Shown one piece after another: positions 4,418-64,000 of a stretch of DNA of 64,000 nucleotides; positions within the stretch are counted from its first letter, which is position 1; each line of letters begins with the position of its first letter. Below the pieces are notes generated by a model. The model was not told where the DNA came from. It saw only the letters and a program-made list of their open reading frames with translations, and searched no databases. A program made the translations under genes and the position numbers. This DNA comes from Octopus vulgaris (lineage: Eukaryota), in the NCBI GenBank assembly GCA_951406725.2, contig OX597817.1:60016001-60080000 (forward strand), read 5' to 3'.

Positions 4418-4569
4418 CAAAGCTTGTGTTGAAGACTTGTCTTCCATAAACCAAGTGTTATCATGCTCTGGAATAAAGGCCAGAGAATTGACTTTACCAA
4501 TGACGTGATTCCCTGCCCATTTATTCCACGTTTGTTTTGGATTGATGCTCAACATCTCAATTCCTGTAG
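4418..4569 (-). CDS. ARHGAP18: ARHGAP18-like coding exon 5 (152 nt): ATGIEMLSINPKQTWNKWAGNHVIGKVNSLAFIPEHDNTWFMEDKSSTQAL
   Basis: Polypyrimidine tract plus ttcag acceptor, phase 1 start, open frame. Donor TTG|gttggt at 4417 gives phase 0, compatible with the next exon. The 3' boundary is less certain. Confidence 0.68.
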
Positions 4570-6008
4570 CTGAACAGATGGAAAAAGAAAAAAAAATAGT
4601 AATATAATAAAGGAAAAAAACCCCAAAAAACAAACTGCAGTAGCTGTGTGGTTAAGAAGCTAGCTTTGCAATCAAATGGTTTGGGGTTCAAACCCACTGT
4701 GCAGCACCTTGCGCAAGTGCTTTCTATTACAACCCTGGGTTGACCAATACCTTGTGAGTAGATGGAAACTGTGTGGAAGCCAGTAATATATATGTGTGTC
4801 TATGTGGTGTGTGTCTTTGTGTTTGTGTTTGTCAGCTCCCACAATGTTTGATGTTGGTTTGTTTATGTTCCTGAAACAAAGTAGTTTGGTGAAAATAGGC
4901 TAACAGAGTAGGTACCAGAGTTTAAAAAAAACACACAAGTACTGAGGTCAGTTTCATTCTCATCATCCTTCTATGGATTGGACGGTTTGACTGAGGATTG
5001 GTAACCCAGGTGGCTGCACCAGGCTCCGATCTGTTTTGGCAAGGTTACTACACCTGGATGCCCTTTCTAATGCCAACCACTCCAAGAGTGTAGTGGGAGC
5101 CAGTCAGCGTGCACTGGCATCGGCCATGCTCGAATGGTGCTTTTTACGTGCCACCAGCATCCAGTTAAAACCCTTTGAGCTGATGCTCTTGCATGGCCAC
5201 CATCTAATGACGGAACCAAGTGAAAGATAAACAGATTATATTTGAAGCAACCTTATTTCATTATTTCTTTTGTATTTCTTTTAAAACAATTTTCTTTTGA
5301 TGTTTCTTTTGTTTCACTTAAGATATTTTAACATTCAGTCATGAAAAAATCTATCTGCTACTGTTCACCTCATGTTGGGGACAGCCTTGAAGGGTTTAGT
5401 CAGAGAAATCTACCTTAGCATAGAAATGTATACATATTTTTAAAGTTTGGTATTTATTATATCAGTCTCATTTGCCAAACAGCTAAGTTAAGGGGATGTA
5501 AAAAACCAACACTGGTTGTCTTGTAAGTGGTGGTGAGGAACAATCATAAACACACACACATCACTTGAATTGACAAGGTCATCAGGTGTTCTACATCATT
5601 GATTACAATTTGCTTCCCATTCTTTCTTGACTGTACCATTCTTTTCCATCTTGGCTCAAATTGTTTCACTTCCCATCATCATAGAAGCCTTCTGAATGGC
5701 ATTTTCCAATCTCTTAGAGACAGCCTGACAACTGCATGGTTCCATTTGTTGCCTGAGAACCTAGTGACATGGCCAACCAGCAGAATTGGTGCTTTCAGTA
5801 TTCTCTCATCATGTTGTTCACTCCACTTCATTCTCAAATCCCTTCATCTTGGATATGCTCTTTCAATCATATTCCTAGCATGGACTTCGTTTTATCTCTA
5901 CAAGCTACTTACAATGGTCATAGTCACCAGAGTATCAAAACACCCAAGATGACCAGCAAGTTTCTGTAAGAACTACACAGCAATGAATCACATATTCATG
6001 CTCACACA

Positions 6009-6888: not shown

Positions 6889-7090
6889 CTGCACCATTTG
6901 CAATTTCGAAATCATCTGGGTTTCCATCCATGGAATAAACGCATTTCCTGTGGAAATAACGATGTCGGTTATCAGGACGCTGCTTCGATGAATCTAGGAC
7001 TGAATTATTGTTGCGATTCCCCGAAGCAAAACCATGAAGACCTCCAGGTTGGTCAGTAGGACTACTTGGGGGAGATTGATTTGGGGGCAT
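6889..7090 (-). CDS. ARHGAP18: ARHGAP18-like coding exon 4 (202 nt): MPPNQSPPSSPTDQPGG...DDFEIANGA
   Basis: tttatttcag acceptor and CAG|gttggt donor. Phase 0 to 1 fits the neighbouring exons. Non-repetitive, codon-like sequence. Confidence 0.78.
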
Positions 7091-8432: not shown

Positions 8433-8595
8433 CTTGGTTGGAAGTGGGTCAAGGTTGGTGAAAGAAAGGTCACCCAATCAAAGAAAATCTGCTTCAACAA
8501 ATACTGTCCAATCAATACAATCATGGAAAAGTGGACATTTAACAATGATGATGATGATGATACGTCCAGAATCTCCTTGAACAAACAATACTTAC

Positions 8596-8762
8596 ATCAT
8601 TATTAGGGAAAATGTATTTTACATGTGTTTTAGCAGCTTTTTTTCTGCTCAATGTGTCAACCCATCGCTGGACAGTGTCTCTCTGTTGTATGGTAAGGGA
8701 GGAAAGCACGAGTTCAGCTTCTTCATCATGTTTTAAATCAACCGATTCTGAACTTGTAGTGG
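8596..8762 (-). CDS. ARHGAP18: ARHGAP18-like coding exon 3 (167 nt): ATTSSESVDLKHDEEAELVLSSLTIQQRDTVQRWVDTLSRKKAAKTHVKYIFPNND
   Basis: ttttcttag acceptor and gtaagt donor, phase 1 to 0, open throughout. LSSLTIQQRDTVQRWVDTL...HVKYIF matches the family motif LSTLTRTQAAAVQKRV...DVRDIF. Confidence 0.88.
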
Positions 8763-9105
8763 CTAAGAAAAATACAAAAAAAATATGAAGTAGTGGCTAA
8801 GAAAAATACAAAAAAATGTGAAGTAGTGGCTAAGAAAAATACAAAAAAATATAAAGTAGTGGCTAAGAAAAATACAACCCCCCCCCCCCAAAAAATATGA
8901 AGTAGTGGCTACGAAAAATATAAAAAATACCAAAAAATATAAAAAATATGAAGTAGTGGCTAAGAAAAATACAAAAAAATATAAAGTAGTGGCTAAGAAA
9001 AATACAAAAAAACCCCCCAAAAATATGAAGTAGTGGCTACGAAAACTATAAAAAATACCAAAAAATATAAAAAATATGAAGTAGTGGCTAAGAAAAATAC
9101 GAAAA
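8756..9105 (-). repeat. Tandem minisatellite built from the exon-3 splice acceptor (basic unit ~33 bp, ~130-bp higher-order unit)
   Basis: Nine copies of TTTTC(T/G)TAG|CCACTAC on the minus strand. The last copy is the real acceptor. Confidence 0.9.
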
Positions 9106-10061
9106 TAAAAAAATAAATAAATAATACATAAATAAAAAATAAAATGTTTTAGAATTCTTGTTTAGCCCTAGGTCATTCATATGTGATGAAGCAAACCGAT
9201 GATCAAAAGATTATCTCTCTTCTTATTTTTATACAGTCTATCTAGGACTATATTATCCAATGTCTTTTTACAATACATTCACGTAAAATTCTAGTGTGGT
9301 TTGACTTATTTCTAGCAAGTTTAATGACTGTGTGGAGGCTCCTACCTTGGCTCAGAAGGTGTGTGTGGAGAGAGAGAGAGAGGTGATGCCCCCTCCCCTA
9401 GTAAAGGGGTGTAAAACGGGCTTGCTCTGAGCATTCACCTGTATGTGACCATGAGATGAAGTGTGGGAGCTGGTATATGCCCCTTCGTGCCCCTACACAG
9501 ATGCCACTTCTACAGGGACATTTTGCTGCAATTTTGTTGTTTTATGACTTAAAGGTAAAACTGGGAGTTGAACCGACTTTTTACATTACTTAATTAAGCA
9601 GCATTAAGAGCCTTGCAAAGTACATAGTGCAGTGATTGTCATGTAACGAAGTTCACTTTGTTACCACACTGTCTTGAGTTCAATATCAGTGCTTGGCACC
9701 TTCAGTAAGTGTCTTCTGAATTCTTGGGTTGACCAATGCTTTGTGAGTAAAATTAGTAGATGGAAAGTGTGTGTATGTGTGTGTGTGTGCATGTGCATGT
9801 GGATGTAACATTCGCTGTCAAAAGAAATCCTCCTCTTGTTCTGTGCTTCCAAAGACATTTCAAATGAGATATTGGTTACTTTAAAAACAGGTAAGGGTTA
9901 GCAACAGGACAAACATGTGTCTGTAGAAAAGAATACTACCATAATGTGTTCTTCTAACCCATGCTAACATGGAGAAACAGATGTTAAACAAACAAGCCGG
10001 TAGGATTTGGAAAGAATTGAAATATGGAATTAAAAGAGTAAATAAACTGCTCTGTAGTTAC

Positions 10062-10127
10062 CAGTAAAGTGAGATATCATGGGTCCAAGTCCAATTTTGG
10101 TTAACTGTTCTGCTTCTATTTCTCCTT
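10062..10127 (-). CDS. ARHGAP18: ARHGAP18-like coding exon 2 (66 nt): EGEIEAEQLTKIGLGPMISHFT
   Basis: tttcag acceptor and G|gtaact donor, phase 1 to 1. Completes KTPD-EGEIEAE, matching the conserved PDEGELEAEWL..xGL block. Not in the ORF track. Confidence 0.88.
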
Positions 10128-10483
10128 CTGAAATTCAAATATAAATCACATATTTTTAGAAAATATTATATTTTTTTCATTTGTATGGAAGATGTTTAAA
10201 TATAGACAAGTAAAACCCTTCTAAGTTTTCAGATACCTCTGTTTATATTTTCAGTAGAGTTCATGCTATGCTAAGTTTTGGTAAATCAAACCAGATCCTT
10301 CTTCAAATATCAGAAACCAAACTCAAATACTTGCAAAAGACTGGACACCACTAAATGCAGCCGAGGTGCCAAATGGTGGCGTTCACCAATGGACAAATTA
10401 AGTTTATCATTCAAATAGCCAATGGTGGATTTGAACTCAAAACACAAAGAATTGAAGCAAATAACACAAGTTCCAATTCCAGG

Positions 10484-11307: not shown

Positions 11308-11473
11308 CATCAGGTGTCTTGGATAAGTCATCTTCACTGTCTTCTGTACCAATTGATTCCTTGCTTTGTCGTATATCGTGGAACTCTTTCCAATAAGTGT
11401 CCATATCGACCACATCACTTCCGGCTTCATGGGACTTGAGCAGCAGCGAACTGGGCAACACACTTCCTTCCAT
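11308..11473 (-). CDS. ARHGAP18: Rho GTPase-activating protein, ARHGAP18/28/40 (conundrum-like), coding exon 1: MEGSVLPSS...MDTYWKEFHDIRQS...SKTPD
   Basis: ATG at 11473 in an AAAACCATGG context. Acceptor (tttattgtag) at 11512-11511, so the exon starts at 11510, with in-frame TGA TGA upstream of the ATG. Donor G|gtaaat at 11307, phase 1. The MDxYWxE..xI...KxPD|EGE motif matches the ARHGAP18/28 N-terminus from memory. Confidence 0.85.
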
Positions 11474-45061: not shown

Positions 45062-45600
45062 TTTACTGGCGTCCGTGCTAGTGGGGTGCAAAGAGCACCA
45101 TACGAGTGTGATCATTGACAGAGCGGCTAACCGGCTTCCATGCCAGTGGCACTTAAAAGGCACCATTCGAGCGTGATCATTGCCAGCATCACCTTACTGG
45201 CACTTGAGCCCCGTGCTAGTAGGGTGTTAAGAGCACCATCCGAGCCTGATCGTTGCCAGAGTGGCTATCTGGCCTCAGTGCCGGTTGCATGTAAAAGACA
45301 CCATTCGAGCGCGATCATTACTAGCATCACCTTACTGGCACCTGTGCCGGTGGCATGTGTAAAAAATTTGAGCGAGGTCGTTACCAGTACCGCCTGACTG
45401 GCCCCGTGCTGGTGGCATGTAAAAAGCACCCACCACACTCTCGGAGTGGTTGGCGTTAGGAAGTGCATCCAGCTGTAGAAACTCTGCCAGATCAAGATTG
45501 AAACCTGGTGCAGCCATCTGGTTTGCCAGCCCTCCGTCAAAATCGTCCAACCCATGCCAGCATGGAAAGCAGATGTTAAGCGATGATGATAATGATGATG
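45062..45600 (+). repeat. RTE-tail family copy with an expanded ~60-70-bp tandem array at its 5' side
   Basis: About six degenerate units of CTGGC..CGTGC..GTGG....TAAAAGCACCATTCGAGCGTGATC precede the standard tail. Confidence 0.75.
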
Positions 45601-46320: not shown

Positions 46321-48588
46321 TATAAATGTCAAAATCAAAAGCAAATTGATTGAAATCAAAATGGAAATTGTAGTTGTGGCCGATGCCAGCGCTGCCTGAC
46401 TGGCACCCGAGCTGGTGGCACGTAATAAGCACCATTCAAGCTTGGGTTGATGCCAGTGCAGCCTGACTGGCTCCCTGTGCCGGTGGCACATAAAAAACAC
46501 CATCCGAACGTGGTCAATGCCAGCCCCCACACACACACACTGGCTCCTGTGCCGGTGGCATGTAAAAGGCACCATCTGAACATGGTCAATGCCAGTACCG
46601 CCTGACTGGCTCCCGTGCTGGTGGCACATAAAAAACACCCACTACATTCACAGAGTGGTTGGTGTTAAGAAGGGCATCCAGCTGTAGAAACCTTGCCAGA
46701 ACAGATTGGGGCCTGGTGCAGCTGCTGGTTCTCCAAACCTCAGTCAAAGTGTCCAACCCATACCAGCATGAGAAATGGATGTTAAATGACAATGATGATG
46801 ACGACGATGATTTATTTCAATAGAATCTGTACAATTTCTAAGAAAACATGTTATTACCACAACATTAACAGTATTTTTATGGCCTTCATAAAATACCGGA
46901 TTCACTTTAGAGGTTGCTTCTGCTTTCATACAGGATATATATATCTATCTCTGATCTTTTATTTATTTCAGTCATTGAACCATGTCATGCTGCAGCAGTA
47001 CCTTATCAATGTCGTTTACATAGCAATTGTAATAAGGCCATTGCAACACTGAAGGGAAGTCAACAGATATTTTACACACAAGAGATATTTCTGCCAGGAT
47101 TTCCTTGTCTGCAATTAAAGAGACCAAGTGGAGCATGTGGCTCAGTGGGTAGGGTTTTGGGCTCGTGATCATTAGATTGTGGTTTCGATTCCTGGACTGG
47201 GCGATGCGGTGTCTTCTTGAGCAAAACACTTCATTTCATGTCGCTCCAGTCCACTCAGCAGGCAAAAATGAGTAACTCTGTGACTGGCCATCGAACCGTC
47301 CAGGTGGAGAACATATACGCCATCGAACCTGGCATGGCTCAAGAAGAAAACATTATTTTATTTCAATTATGGAGACCATGTTAATGTGCATTATACGGAA
47401 ATATATACAATACCACACTGTGCCAGTTTGTAACATCATCATCATCATCATCATCATTCTTTTAATGTCCACTTTCCCATGATTGCATGGGTTAAAGGAG
47501 TTTATTGAGGCAGATTATCTATGGATGGATGTTCTTCCTGGTGCTGAAACTCATCCCTTTCCAAGCAAGGCAATATTTCCCCCATCACCAGACATGTTTT
47601 TACACAATACTGGAAACAAATGACCCTGCTTGTATGTCAGTGACTCTCATTTACAATTATTGCACAATGACAAGATAAGGAGACTCAAAAACACACACAA
47701 ACTCACAGATTTAGACACATACACACTCATACACAACACAGATGTACATATATATGATATCCTTATTTCAGATCCTGCCTAGCAAATCCATTCACAGGGA
47801 TTATGTGATTATGTGATTTGCATGGTGACCTCACAAGTGCTGGTAGCACGAAAAGAGCACTCATTGTCATCATAATCATCATCATCATTTAATGTCCATT
47901 GTCCATTCTGGTATGGGTTGAACGGTCTGACCACAACTGGCAAGCTGCAACAGGCTCCAGCTGTCTGTTTTGGCATGGTCTCTATCGCTGGATGCCCTTC
48001 CTAATGCCAACCCTTTTACAGGGTCTGCATGGTGCTTCCACAAGTGCTTATCACTACCAGAGGGACCAGTCTTAACACTTCTGCTGTACATGCCATAAAG
48101 TGGTTGGCATTAAGAAGGGCCTTCATGTACAGAAACCATGCTAAAGCAGACAATAGAGCAGGATGGGGTCCTTGGACTTATTGGATTCCAAACCATTTAA
48201 CCCGTGTGGAACACAGACATTAAATAATGATGATGACAATGATGATGATGATGGTCGTTGTGTGTGAATGATGACACCCGACAAACTTGCTTGTCACTGG
48301 CTTGAGCAACACAAAGATGTTTATATTCAATGTAGACATTATGATTGGTTGCTCAAAACCCTTGAAAATCAACAGAATGTTAAAAAATATCCTTTACTAG
48401 AAAAAAAAAGTAGGTATAGGTTGGCAACAGGAAGAGCACTCAGTTGTAAAGTACTGTTTCAAATAAGTTCCTTGCCAACCCATGACAGCATGTAAAAGCA
48501 AGCAATTACATTGCTAACACAGATCATTGCCAGCTTCCATGTATAATTTTGTTTTGTCTATTTATATTTTTTTTTAGCTACATATCAG

Positions 48589-62412: not shown

Positions 62413-64000
62413 ATTCTTTGTAATTTTTGGTACAAGGCCAGCAATTTTGAAGGGAAAAGTTGAGTGCATCAACACCAGTTCTCAACTGGTTCTCATTTTC
62501 ATCAAGGATGGAAGGATGAATAACATAGTCAACCTTGGTGGTTTCAGAGGGCAGATTGTAACGCCAAGAAAAATACTGCTAAACATTGCCAAAAGTGCTA
62601 GTTTGTCACCCTAATAATAAAGGTTTCAAATTTAGGCACAAGGCCAGCAATTTTGAGGGAGGCGTCTATTTGATTACATCAAGCTCAGTGATCAACTGGT
62701 ACTTATTTTGTTGACCCCTAAAAGGATGAAAAGCAAAGTCGACTTTGGCAGAATTTGAACTCGGAACACAAAGATGGATCAAATGCCACTCTGCATTCTG
62801 TCTGGTGTACTAACAATTCTCTCAGATTACCACCATAATGATAAAAATAATGATATTATAATCGTTAGGTAGAATCAGAGTACCACCAATTATTGAACCA
62901 CAGGTATGGCCACAGCAAACCAGACTGCCATGTATTTTTTTTCATTTGTATGGGTTTGGTTGACCTAAATGAGAGGGAGAGAGATGGAGAGAGAGGGAGA
63001 GGGAGAGTGAGAGAGAGGGAGAGTGAGAGAGAGCAAGAGGGAGAGAAAGGGAGGGGGAGAGGGAGAGAGAGAGAATGTTTATTGGTATAGATTTGTATCA
63101 TCAAAAATGCATTGTCATGTTTGTGTCATGTTGATTTACTGATAAACATGCCTTTGCATTCTCAATATCTTATTGCAATTACAGCGACATCTTAAACCCT
63201 AATCTGACCATACATGCAGATATATATATATATTGATACACATATATGTACGTGTGTTTGTGTGTTCAAACTAATGCCTTTATTTATCTCTCTTCAGTAA
63301 ATCTATAATTGCATGTGTGCGTGTGTTTACGTATGCAGTTGTTATGATTCTGCAATTAAATACTGCACCAGAAAATTGGCCTTGTAATATTACATCTTCC
63401 TTTCATTATGTATTCTGTGTTATATGATCAAAACAGTTTAGTTAATTATTTAATTTGAAAGTGTAAGATGGCTTATTGTGTTGTGGTAATTACATTGAGG
63501 TAAATAACAAAGGAGACGTAGGTTCGATTCCCACTGGATTACCACTTTCAATCAATTACAGTTTGGATCTGAATATCTGCAAAATAACACTACTTAAAAG
63601 ATGCTACACATACACACACTTATGTCTTGGGCATAAAGGCACATTCAACATTGCAAAAAAATTTTTTAAATACAATAATAAAAACATGAAAATCTGACCC
63701 TGTTGTAACTTAATTTAACTGGCACATAAAAAGCAGCATTCAAGTGCCACCAATGCCAGTGCCACCTGACTGGCTCCCTTGTGGTGGCACATAAAAAGCA
63801 CCATTTGAGCGTGGTCGATGCCAGTGTCACCTGACTAGCCTCCCCGTGCTGTGACACATAAAAAGCACCCACTACACTCTCAGAGTGGTTGGCATTAGTA
63901 AAGACATCCAGCTGTAGAAACCTTGCCAGATCAGATTGGAGCCTGGTGCAGCCTCCTGGCTTGCCAGTCCTCAGTCAAACCGTCTAACTTATGCCAGCAT

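Follow-up and report, generated by a model that had tools for sequence, protein, structure and literature searches.

A mirage-type minisatellite reiterates the exon 3 acceptor of an ARHGAP18-like gene in Octopus vulgaris

Repeats that carry splice sites

Mirage minisatellites have been described in amphioxus. According to the available part of PMC3087553, an intron's 3' end and the 5' portion of exon 2 of the BflGb6 gene were tandemly duplicated, giving haplotypes with 6 and 3 units. Splice signals are present in many of these units, and BflGb6 was nonetheless found by RT-PCR to be spliced regularly. The same text gives a span of 10–160 bp for the units of mirage minisatellites. Further amphioxus mirages occur in Adh (Adh3), troponin C and PGBD5, as described in the available part of PMC3902484, and somatic instability was shown for the Adh3 mirage (cited through the available parts of PMC3087553 and PMC3902484). 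Acceptor-type mirages are reported in these parts of both papers without disturbance of splicing.

Human VNTRs reiterate the donor side of the junction. The available part of PMC1557585 covers donor-spanning VNTRs in F7 intron 7, CBS intron 13, 6-16, lamin B2 and PDGF. In its account, the exon-adjacent site was the sole one used in F7, lamin B2 and PDGF, whereas CBS and 6-16 used two further pseudo-sites. Pseudo-sites of F7 that are identical to the true donor stayed silent, including those that keep the frame, and frame failed to explain site choice in this gene. The VNTR in ABCA7 intron 18 comprises 12–427 units; retention of one unit leads to a frameshift and a premature stop, and its isoform effects were measured in people (available part of PMC5954066). 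PMC2812944 deals with repeats altering gene structure, and the portion available holds no acceptor arrays.

Herein, we analyzed a stretch of 64,000 nt of Octopus vulgaris DNA (the window, to which all positions refer), in which a mirage-type minisatellite occupies 8756..9105 on the minus strand, at the junction of intron 2 and exon 3 of an ARHGAP18-like gene, where the acceptor stands nine times, the true copy counted in. Like the BflGb6 repeat, this array repeats an intron's 3' end with the start of the next exon, lies in the intron and has AG-bearing units, and its unit length falls inside the 10–160 bp span of amphioxus mirages. Unlike those mirages, it occurs in a cephalopod, includes only 7 exon bases per unit, which makes the unit a near-bare 3' splice-site module, and combines three unit types with a higher-order repeat. 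With the human donor VNTRs, it shares the identical reiteration of a splice site in an intron. There, splicing relies solely or chiefly on the copy next to the exon, and the annotated octopus isoforms also use the exon-adjacent copy. As in ABCA7, a splice site lies within the unit, and splicing at the neighboring copy would shift the frame and lead to a premature stop; the ABCA7 mechanism is the one that the initial annotation had proposed for octopus. The human repeats lie on the donor side and were minigene-tested or, for ABCA7, had their isoform effects measured in people, whereas the octopus array lies on the acceptor side, copies the branch point and pyrimidine tract as well, and carries 8 extra copies.

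Judged by its sequence, the array would be classed as a mirage minisatellite: it spans the junction, keeps the AG, has units of 33–51 nt and bears the marks of tandem turnover. Searches of open-licence papers gave no mirage minisatellite from a cephalopod. We conclude that the octopus array is a real and ordinary repeat of the mirage class in a new phylum. It adds cephalopods to the animals in which such repeats are on record and, as it stands, is of little consequence. Its one use would be as a natural experiment, and a clean one, on how a mollusc selects its 3' splice sites.

The array and its host gene

The array-bearing gene is ARHGAP18-like and runs on the minus strand; the window carries its first six coding exons. 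Exon 3 alone as a query returned 2 of 27 candidate proteins, both of them Octopus ARHGAP18. The clusters of these two matches held 10 proteins, 7 of which were RhoGAP isoforms from O. vulgaris, O. sinensis and O. bimaculoides. Also clustered with RhoGAP protein P0001 were three entries under the name 'zinc finger protein 385B' (195–204 aa), which had no real tblastn match in the window; they possibly represent a neighboring or read-through gene model. One O. vulgaris isoform, P0008, exceeded the other isoforms in length (894 aa). In a tblastn comparison of the named Octopus proteins, P0006 of O. vulgaris was the best match to the window exons. The full P0006 protein contains a RhoGAP domain (PF00620, E 3.5e-37) and an RHG40-like C-terminal ubiquitin-like domain (PF25442, E 1.6e-26), both encoded outside the window. 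With these domains in P0006 and the window exons matching this protein, the gene would belong to the ARHGAP18/28/40 (RhoGAP) genes by sequence.

All exons were mapped on the minus strand. By tblastn and boundary signals, the first coding exon extends from the ATG over 11308..11473, exon 2 (66 nt) over 10062..10127 with its donor GT at 10061-10060, exon 3 (167 nt) over 8596..8762 with its true acceptor AG at 8764-8763 and donor GT at 8595-8594, and exon 4 over 6889..7090. Exon 5 starts at 4569 by tblastn, and nine residues matched by tblastn placed a micro-exon of ~26 nt with clean AG and GT at 2365-2340. The exon boundaries define intron 2 as a 1299-nt, phase 1 intron between 10061 and 8763. 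The exon 2 donor at 10061 and the true exon 3 start at 8762, both named in the initial annotation, were thus correct. Exon 2 is joined to 8762 without insertion in all seven annotated RhoGAP isoforms from the three Octopus species, in gene models that would leave NMD targets unlisted.

The repeated unit is the 3' splice site preceding exon 3 together with the first 7 exon bases, CCACTAC, as the initial annotation had described; the protein alignment fixed the boundary, and 8 extra copies are present. The eight decoy exon starts at 8796, 8829, 8862, 8908, 8959, 8992, 9036 and 9087 (AG followed by CCACTAC on the minus strand) were all exact, as were their offsets from 8762 of 34, 67, 100, 146, 197, 230, 274 and 325 nt. 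The eight CCACTAC-bearing decoys therefore stand; taken as a list of intronic AGs, they were incomplete, because a ninth AG lies inside unit 8, with an exon start at 9045 and an offset of 283. The unit holds 26–27 intron bases and 7 exon bases, unit lengths run from 33 to 51 nt, and the spacers, in order from the true site, are 34, 33, 33, 46, 51, 33, 44 and 51 nt.

Unit 1 (8763..8796, minus strand, 34 nt) has an 8-T run and contains the true polypyrimidine tract and the branch-point motif at −24. Unit 2 (8797..8829, minus strand, 33 nt) holds the decoy AG before 8796. Units 3, 4 and 5 (33 + 46 + 51 nt), of which unit 4 has a 12-G run, form a first higher-order copy at 8830..8959 (minus strand), and units 6, 7 and 8 (33 + 44 + 51 nt), of which unit 8 has the extra AG, form a second one at 8960..9087 (minus strand). 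A higher-order unit of ~130 bp had been noted before, and it is indeed present as a 130-nt block repeated as a 128-nt block; alignment of the two copies gave 6 mismatches and 2 gaps. Units 3 and 6 are identical, and units 5 and 8 differ by a single letter. Beyond them, the most distal acceptor and a 67-nt AG-free, T-rich stretch occupy 9088..9155 (minus strand), which, by the logic of tandem duplication, would be where the intron side of this junction first lay.

A 15-letter acceptor motif matched 9 times in the 64-kb window, always within the array, against 0.44 expected, and 0 of 100 shuffles reached 9. TAG and the branch-point motif are retained in 8/8 decoy units. None of the four other acceptors of the gene within the window has copies of this kind. 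For a reading as intron gain or a ladder of micro-exons, the array offered 13 GT, none of them like the true donor. Elsewhere in the window, tandem repeats of 138, 72 and 65 nt lie at 45073-45348, 46466-46639 and 63720-63869, respectively; they are built from a dispersed family that recurs near 700-900 and 5050-5160.

Recovery of the array from other sequencing runs

Contigs of four sequencing runs (of 24 listed) were compared with 8560-10200: X2 and X9 from organism A, X4 from organism B and X8 from organism D. Parts of the array were found in short-read contigs of three other studies, one of them from the sister species. In X2, record 1 matched 8560-8807 at full depth and record 2 matched 8788-8848 (61 nt), both with 0 differences; these two records reproduce units 1 and 2, respectively, without change, and the 34-nt spacer and the adjoining 33-nt spacer are therefore real. 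Graph construction from the window (k=31) predicted a contig end at 8807, a contig span of 8788-8848 and a contig start at 9071. All three were found in X2 (start 9071 as record 4), and start 9071 recurred in X4 record 12. Record 3 of X2 (148 nt) aligned to 8821-8970, from which it departs in 7 letters and by 2 gaps; its length and a diagnostic letter agree with the second higher-order copy, to which it would be a close match, not one proven exact.

X4, which shows the V-to-M change known from the protein of O. sinensis, has contigs containing 8854-8923 and 8894-8970 with different letters, the C-run unit at about twice the flanking depth, and the 51-nt unit. The presence of both units means that an array with variant units is common to the sister species. 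A 26-letter insertion at 9857 in X4, within intron 2, largely copies adjacent letters and is another small tandem duplication. Record 26 of X9, over 8858-8997, showed 0 substitutions, with the C-run at 8878 two letters short; it takes in the first higher-order copy and the point where this copy meets the second. X8, at a depth of 3.6–6, gave no long piece within the array, a blank that has no evidential weight. No contig spanning the whole array was present among the contigs listed, and 8998-9143 was masked as repeat. The exon 3 pattern gave 0 matches among metagenome contigs.

The initial annotation had asked whether the array was absent from reads and whether its homopolymer lengths were sound. 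The X2, X4 and X9 contigs and the graph-predicted ends refute an assembly artefact for the array as a whole. As to the homopolymers, the 8-T run of unit 1 was exact in X2, whereas the 12-C run was absent from all contigs listed, the segment being two letters shorter in X9, X4 and X2. The 46-nt spacer of the window, with its 12-C run, is accordingly either a miscall or a private allele; in X2, simplification of the graph may also have removed it. Records 2 and 3 of X2 had depths of 7.7 and 7.3 between flanks at 14–15, and the k=31 graph arithmetic gives an expectation near 21 for record 3 under a homozygous window allele. These depths, which are no copy number, weakly hint at other alleles of the array.

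Acceptor choice and reading frame

The first-AG rule concerns AGs on the downstream side of the branch point, whose consensus is yTnAy. The initial annotation had stated that the spliceosome must bypass eight near-identical AGs. This is not supported, since the true site matches yTnAy at −24 with an AG-free zone of 32 nt, and this motif lies downstream of the nearest decoy AG; the first-AG rule therefore already gives 8762. Each of the eight decoys also has its own yTnAy motif match within −15 to −45, and the typical distance from branch point to AG is 19–37 nt (available part of PMC10078293). The issue is competition among nine complete modules rather than scanning past AGs.

Over −20 to +3, 4/8 decoys show no difference from the true site. 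Because these four are locally identical and have their own branch-point motifs, junction counts on the array would gauge what exon context achieves by itself. The first 50 nt past the true AG are 60% purine with 4 GAR, whereas the first 50 nt past the eight decoy AGs are 24–42% purine with 0 GAR. The exon 3 donor lies 167 nt from the true site versus 201–492 nt from the decoys. RNA folding of the array gave nothing special (z +1.62, with 96 of 100 shuffles folding as well), which rejects RNA structure as a mask of the decoys. The contigs of X9, a run guessed to be RNA, read on without splicing past either end of exon 3 and leave exon 2 without cover, a blank that again has no evidential weight.

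All decoys had been described as out of frame. This is true of the window (remainders mod 3 of 1, 1, 1, 2, 2, 2, 1 and 1) and fails for the X9 form of the C-run, in which decoys 4–6 fall in frame at 144, 195 and 228 (the proximal 100 nt being taken as in the window, unphased). Single-base homopolymer changes in the array brought at least one decoy in frame in 37 of 44 cases, and 420 of 3360 spacer reorderings (0.125) had no in-frame decoy. Five of the eight spacers are divisible by three, which leaves three frame-setting events and a chance of (2/3)^3 = 0.30. If the eight offsets were independent, p would be ~0.04 for none in frame, and this would speak against a tolerated repeat; independence is, however, the wrong null for duplicated units. 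The proposal that in-frame decoys had been selected against finds no support, given the linked offsets, the share of reorderings, the homopolymer changes and the in-frame X9 form.

Use of any decoy was computed to be unproductive, as had been proposed, with a premature stop for 8/8 decoys in the window form and 8/8 in the shorter C-run form. Every decoy meets a stop by arithmetic: given a phase 1 intron 2 and a unit 1 of 1 mod 3, upstream decoys are out of frame, or else the TAG of decoy 1 is read in frame. We simulated 20000 arrays with jittered homopolymers and sorted them by proximal-unit length mod 3. An open decoy occurred in none of the 7123 arrays whose proximal unit was 1 mod 3; at 2 mod 3, about half of 6514 arrays were without one; and at 0 mod 3, 0/6363 were free of one. 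Overall, 52% of the arrays had no open decoy. The stops of all eight decoys are one event, one base of the 34-nt proximal unit, with about one chance in three. One T fewer in unit 1 would open the decoys at 33, 66 and 99. Record 9 of X4, entering from exon 3, ends at 8782 after seven A of the proximal run. A simulated 33/34 heterozygote also ends at 8782, and a 33-nt homozygote would extend three letters further. This hints at an in-frame 33-nt proximal form in the sister species, although any fork at 8782 would look alike. The out-of-frame pattern is no evidence of selection or regulation.

The array is most likely a tolerated acceptor-type mirage, with 8762 chosen from the exon side and the stops a by-product of one T. 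A 33/34-nt piece, the last 26–27 intron bases and the first 7 exon bases, would have been duplicated head to tail. Homopolymer slippage would then have given the 44/46- and 51-nt units, and the three-unit block would have been duplicated again, the observed sequence suggesting slippage or unequal crossing-over as the route of turnover. At the level of motifs, each unit would be a complete minimal 3' splice-site module of branch-point motif, pyrimidine tract and AG. With acceptors that are locally indistinguishable, the choice would come from the exon side, as exon definition predicts: the last copy alone adjoins a purine-rich exon body at 167 nt from the exon 3 donor, and the decoys would define U-rich exons of 201–492 nt. 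The gene would thus be spliced at 8762, as in the annotated isoforms. Any small leak would end in a premature stop and NMD clearance, probably as a by-product of the extra T in the proximal unit and not through a control device. By analogy, the leak of the donor-side arrays of 6-16, CBS and ABCA7 would argue against such tolerance. Persistence of the array in two species fits tolerance and also fits weak retention.

Alternatively, the decoys may be used and their products sent to NMD, with array length or tissue setting the RhoGAP dosage. The premature stops of all eight decoys, the identity of four of them with the true site, the leaking donor arrays of ABCA7, CBS and 6-16 (available parts of PMC5954066 and PMC1557585) and the X2 depths that hint at other alleles would agree with such copy-number-tunable, unproductive splicing. 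We nevertheless consider it improbable, as no decoy junction was recovered from the four runs compared, none of the seven annotated isoforms has an insertion (gene models would omit NMD isoforms), acceptor-type mirages leave splicing undisturbed in the accounts available from PMC3087553 and PMC3902484, F7 pseudo-sites identical to the true donor are silent in that of PMC1557585, and one base suffices for the stop pattern. Purifying selection on frame is just as doubtful. It would act if slight leak made an in-frame insertion of 11 hydrophobic residues harmful, so that the 34-nt unit was favored as a gatekeeper. The 7123 simulated arrays without an open decoy at 1 mod 3, set against none free at 0 mod 3, and the 34-nt unit, which X2 record 1 from a separate study confirms at its full depth, speak for this reading. 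Against it, the pattern is a single event with a prior near one third, about half of all jittered arrays lack an open decoy anyway, the X4 record 9 end at 8782 hints at an in-frame form in the sister species, and the frame-keeping F7 pseudo-sites are unused too (available part of PMC1557585).

A long-read homopolymer or repeat error, as the source of the array or of its frame pattern, is scarcely credible. The 12-C run that no listed contig contains, with X9, X4 and X2 two letters shorter, would allow a miscall of one run, but X2 reproduces units 1 and 2 exactly, X9 record 26 shows 0 substitutions across the first higher-order copy and the joint that follows it, variant units are present in X4, and the contig ends agree with the predicted graph. 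It would likewise be a long shot, slightly longer than either form of regulation or selection above, that the array is a working rheostat in two octopus species, with tissue-limited decoy use and the extra T as a gatekeeper that sends decoy products to NMD. If true, this T would direct decoy products to NMD at any upstream copy number, a 33-nt allele would yield a ladder of in-frame isoforms with +11/+22/+33 residues, and the array would have a function as a mirage on the acceptor side. Were decoy use to scale with copy number when NMD is blocked, the array would be an acceptor-side counterpart of the ABCA7 VNTR.

Two other joints of the gene, both on the minus strand, showed small variations. 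At the exon 3–4 joint (8596/7090), the annotated isoforms vary by one residue: four proteins have Asp, as the GT-AG boundaries of the window predict, the O. sinensis isoform P0007 is without Asp, and two O. bimaculoides proteins read Asn-Ser-Met. A second GT or AG three bases off was sought in the window as an explanation, and none was found. At the exon 5 acceptor, two CAG lie six bases apart at 4569 and 4563. The annotated proteins use the upstream CAG, and use of the other would remove two residues in frame.
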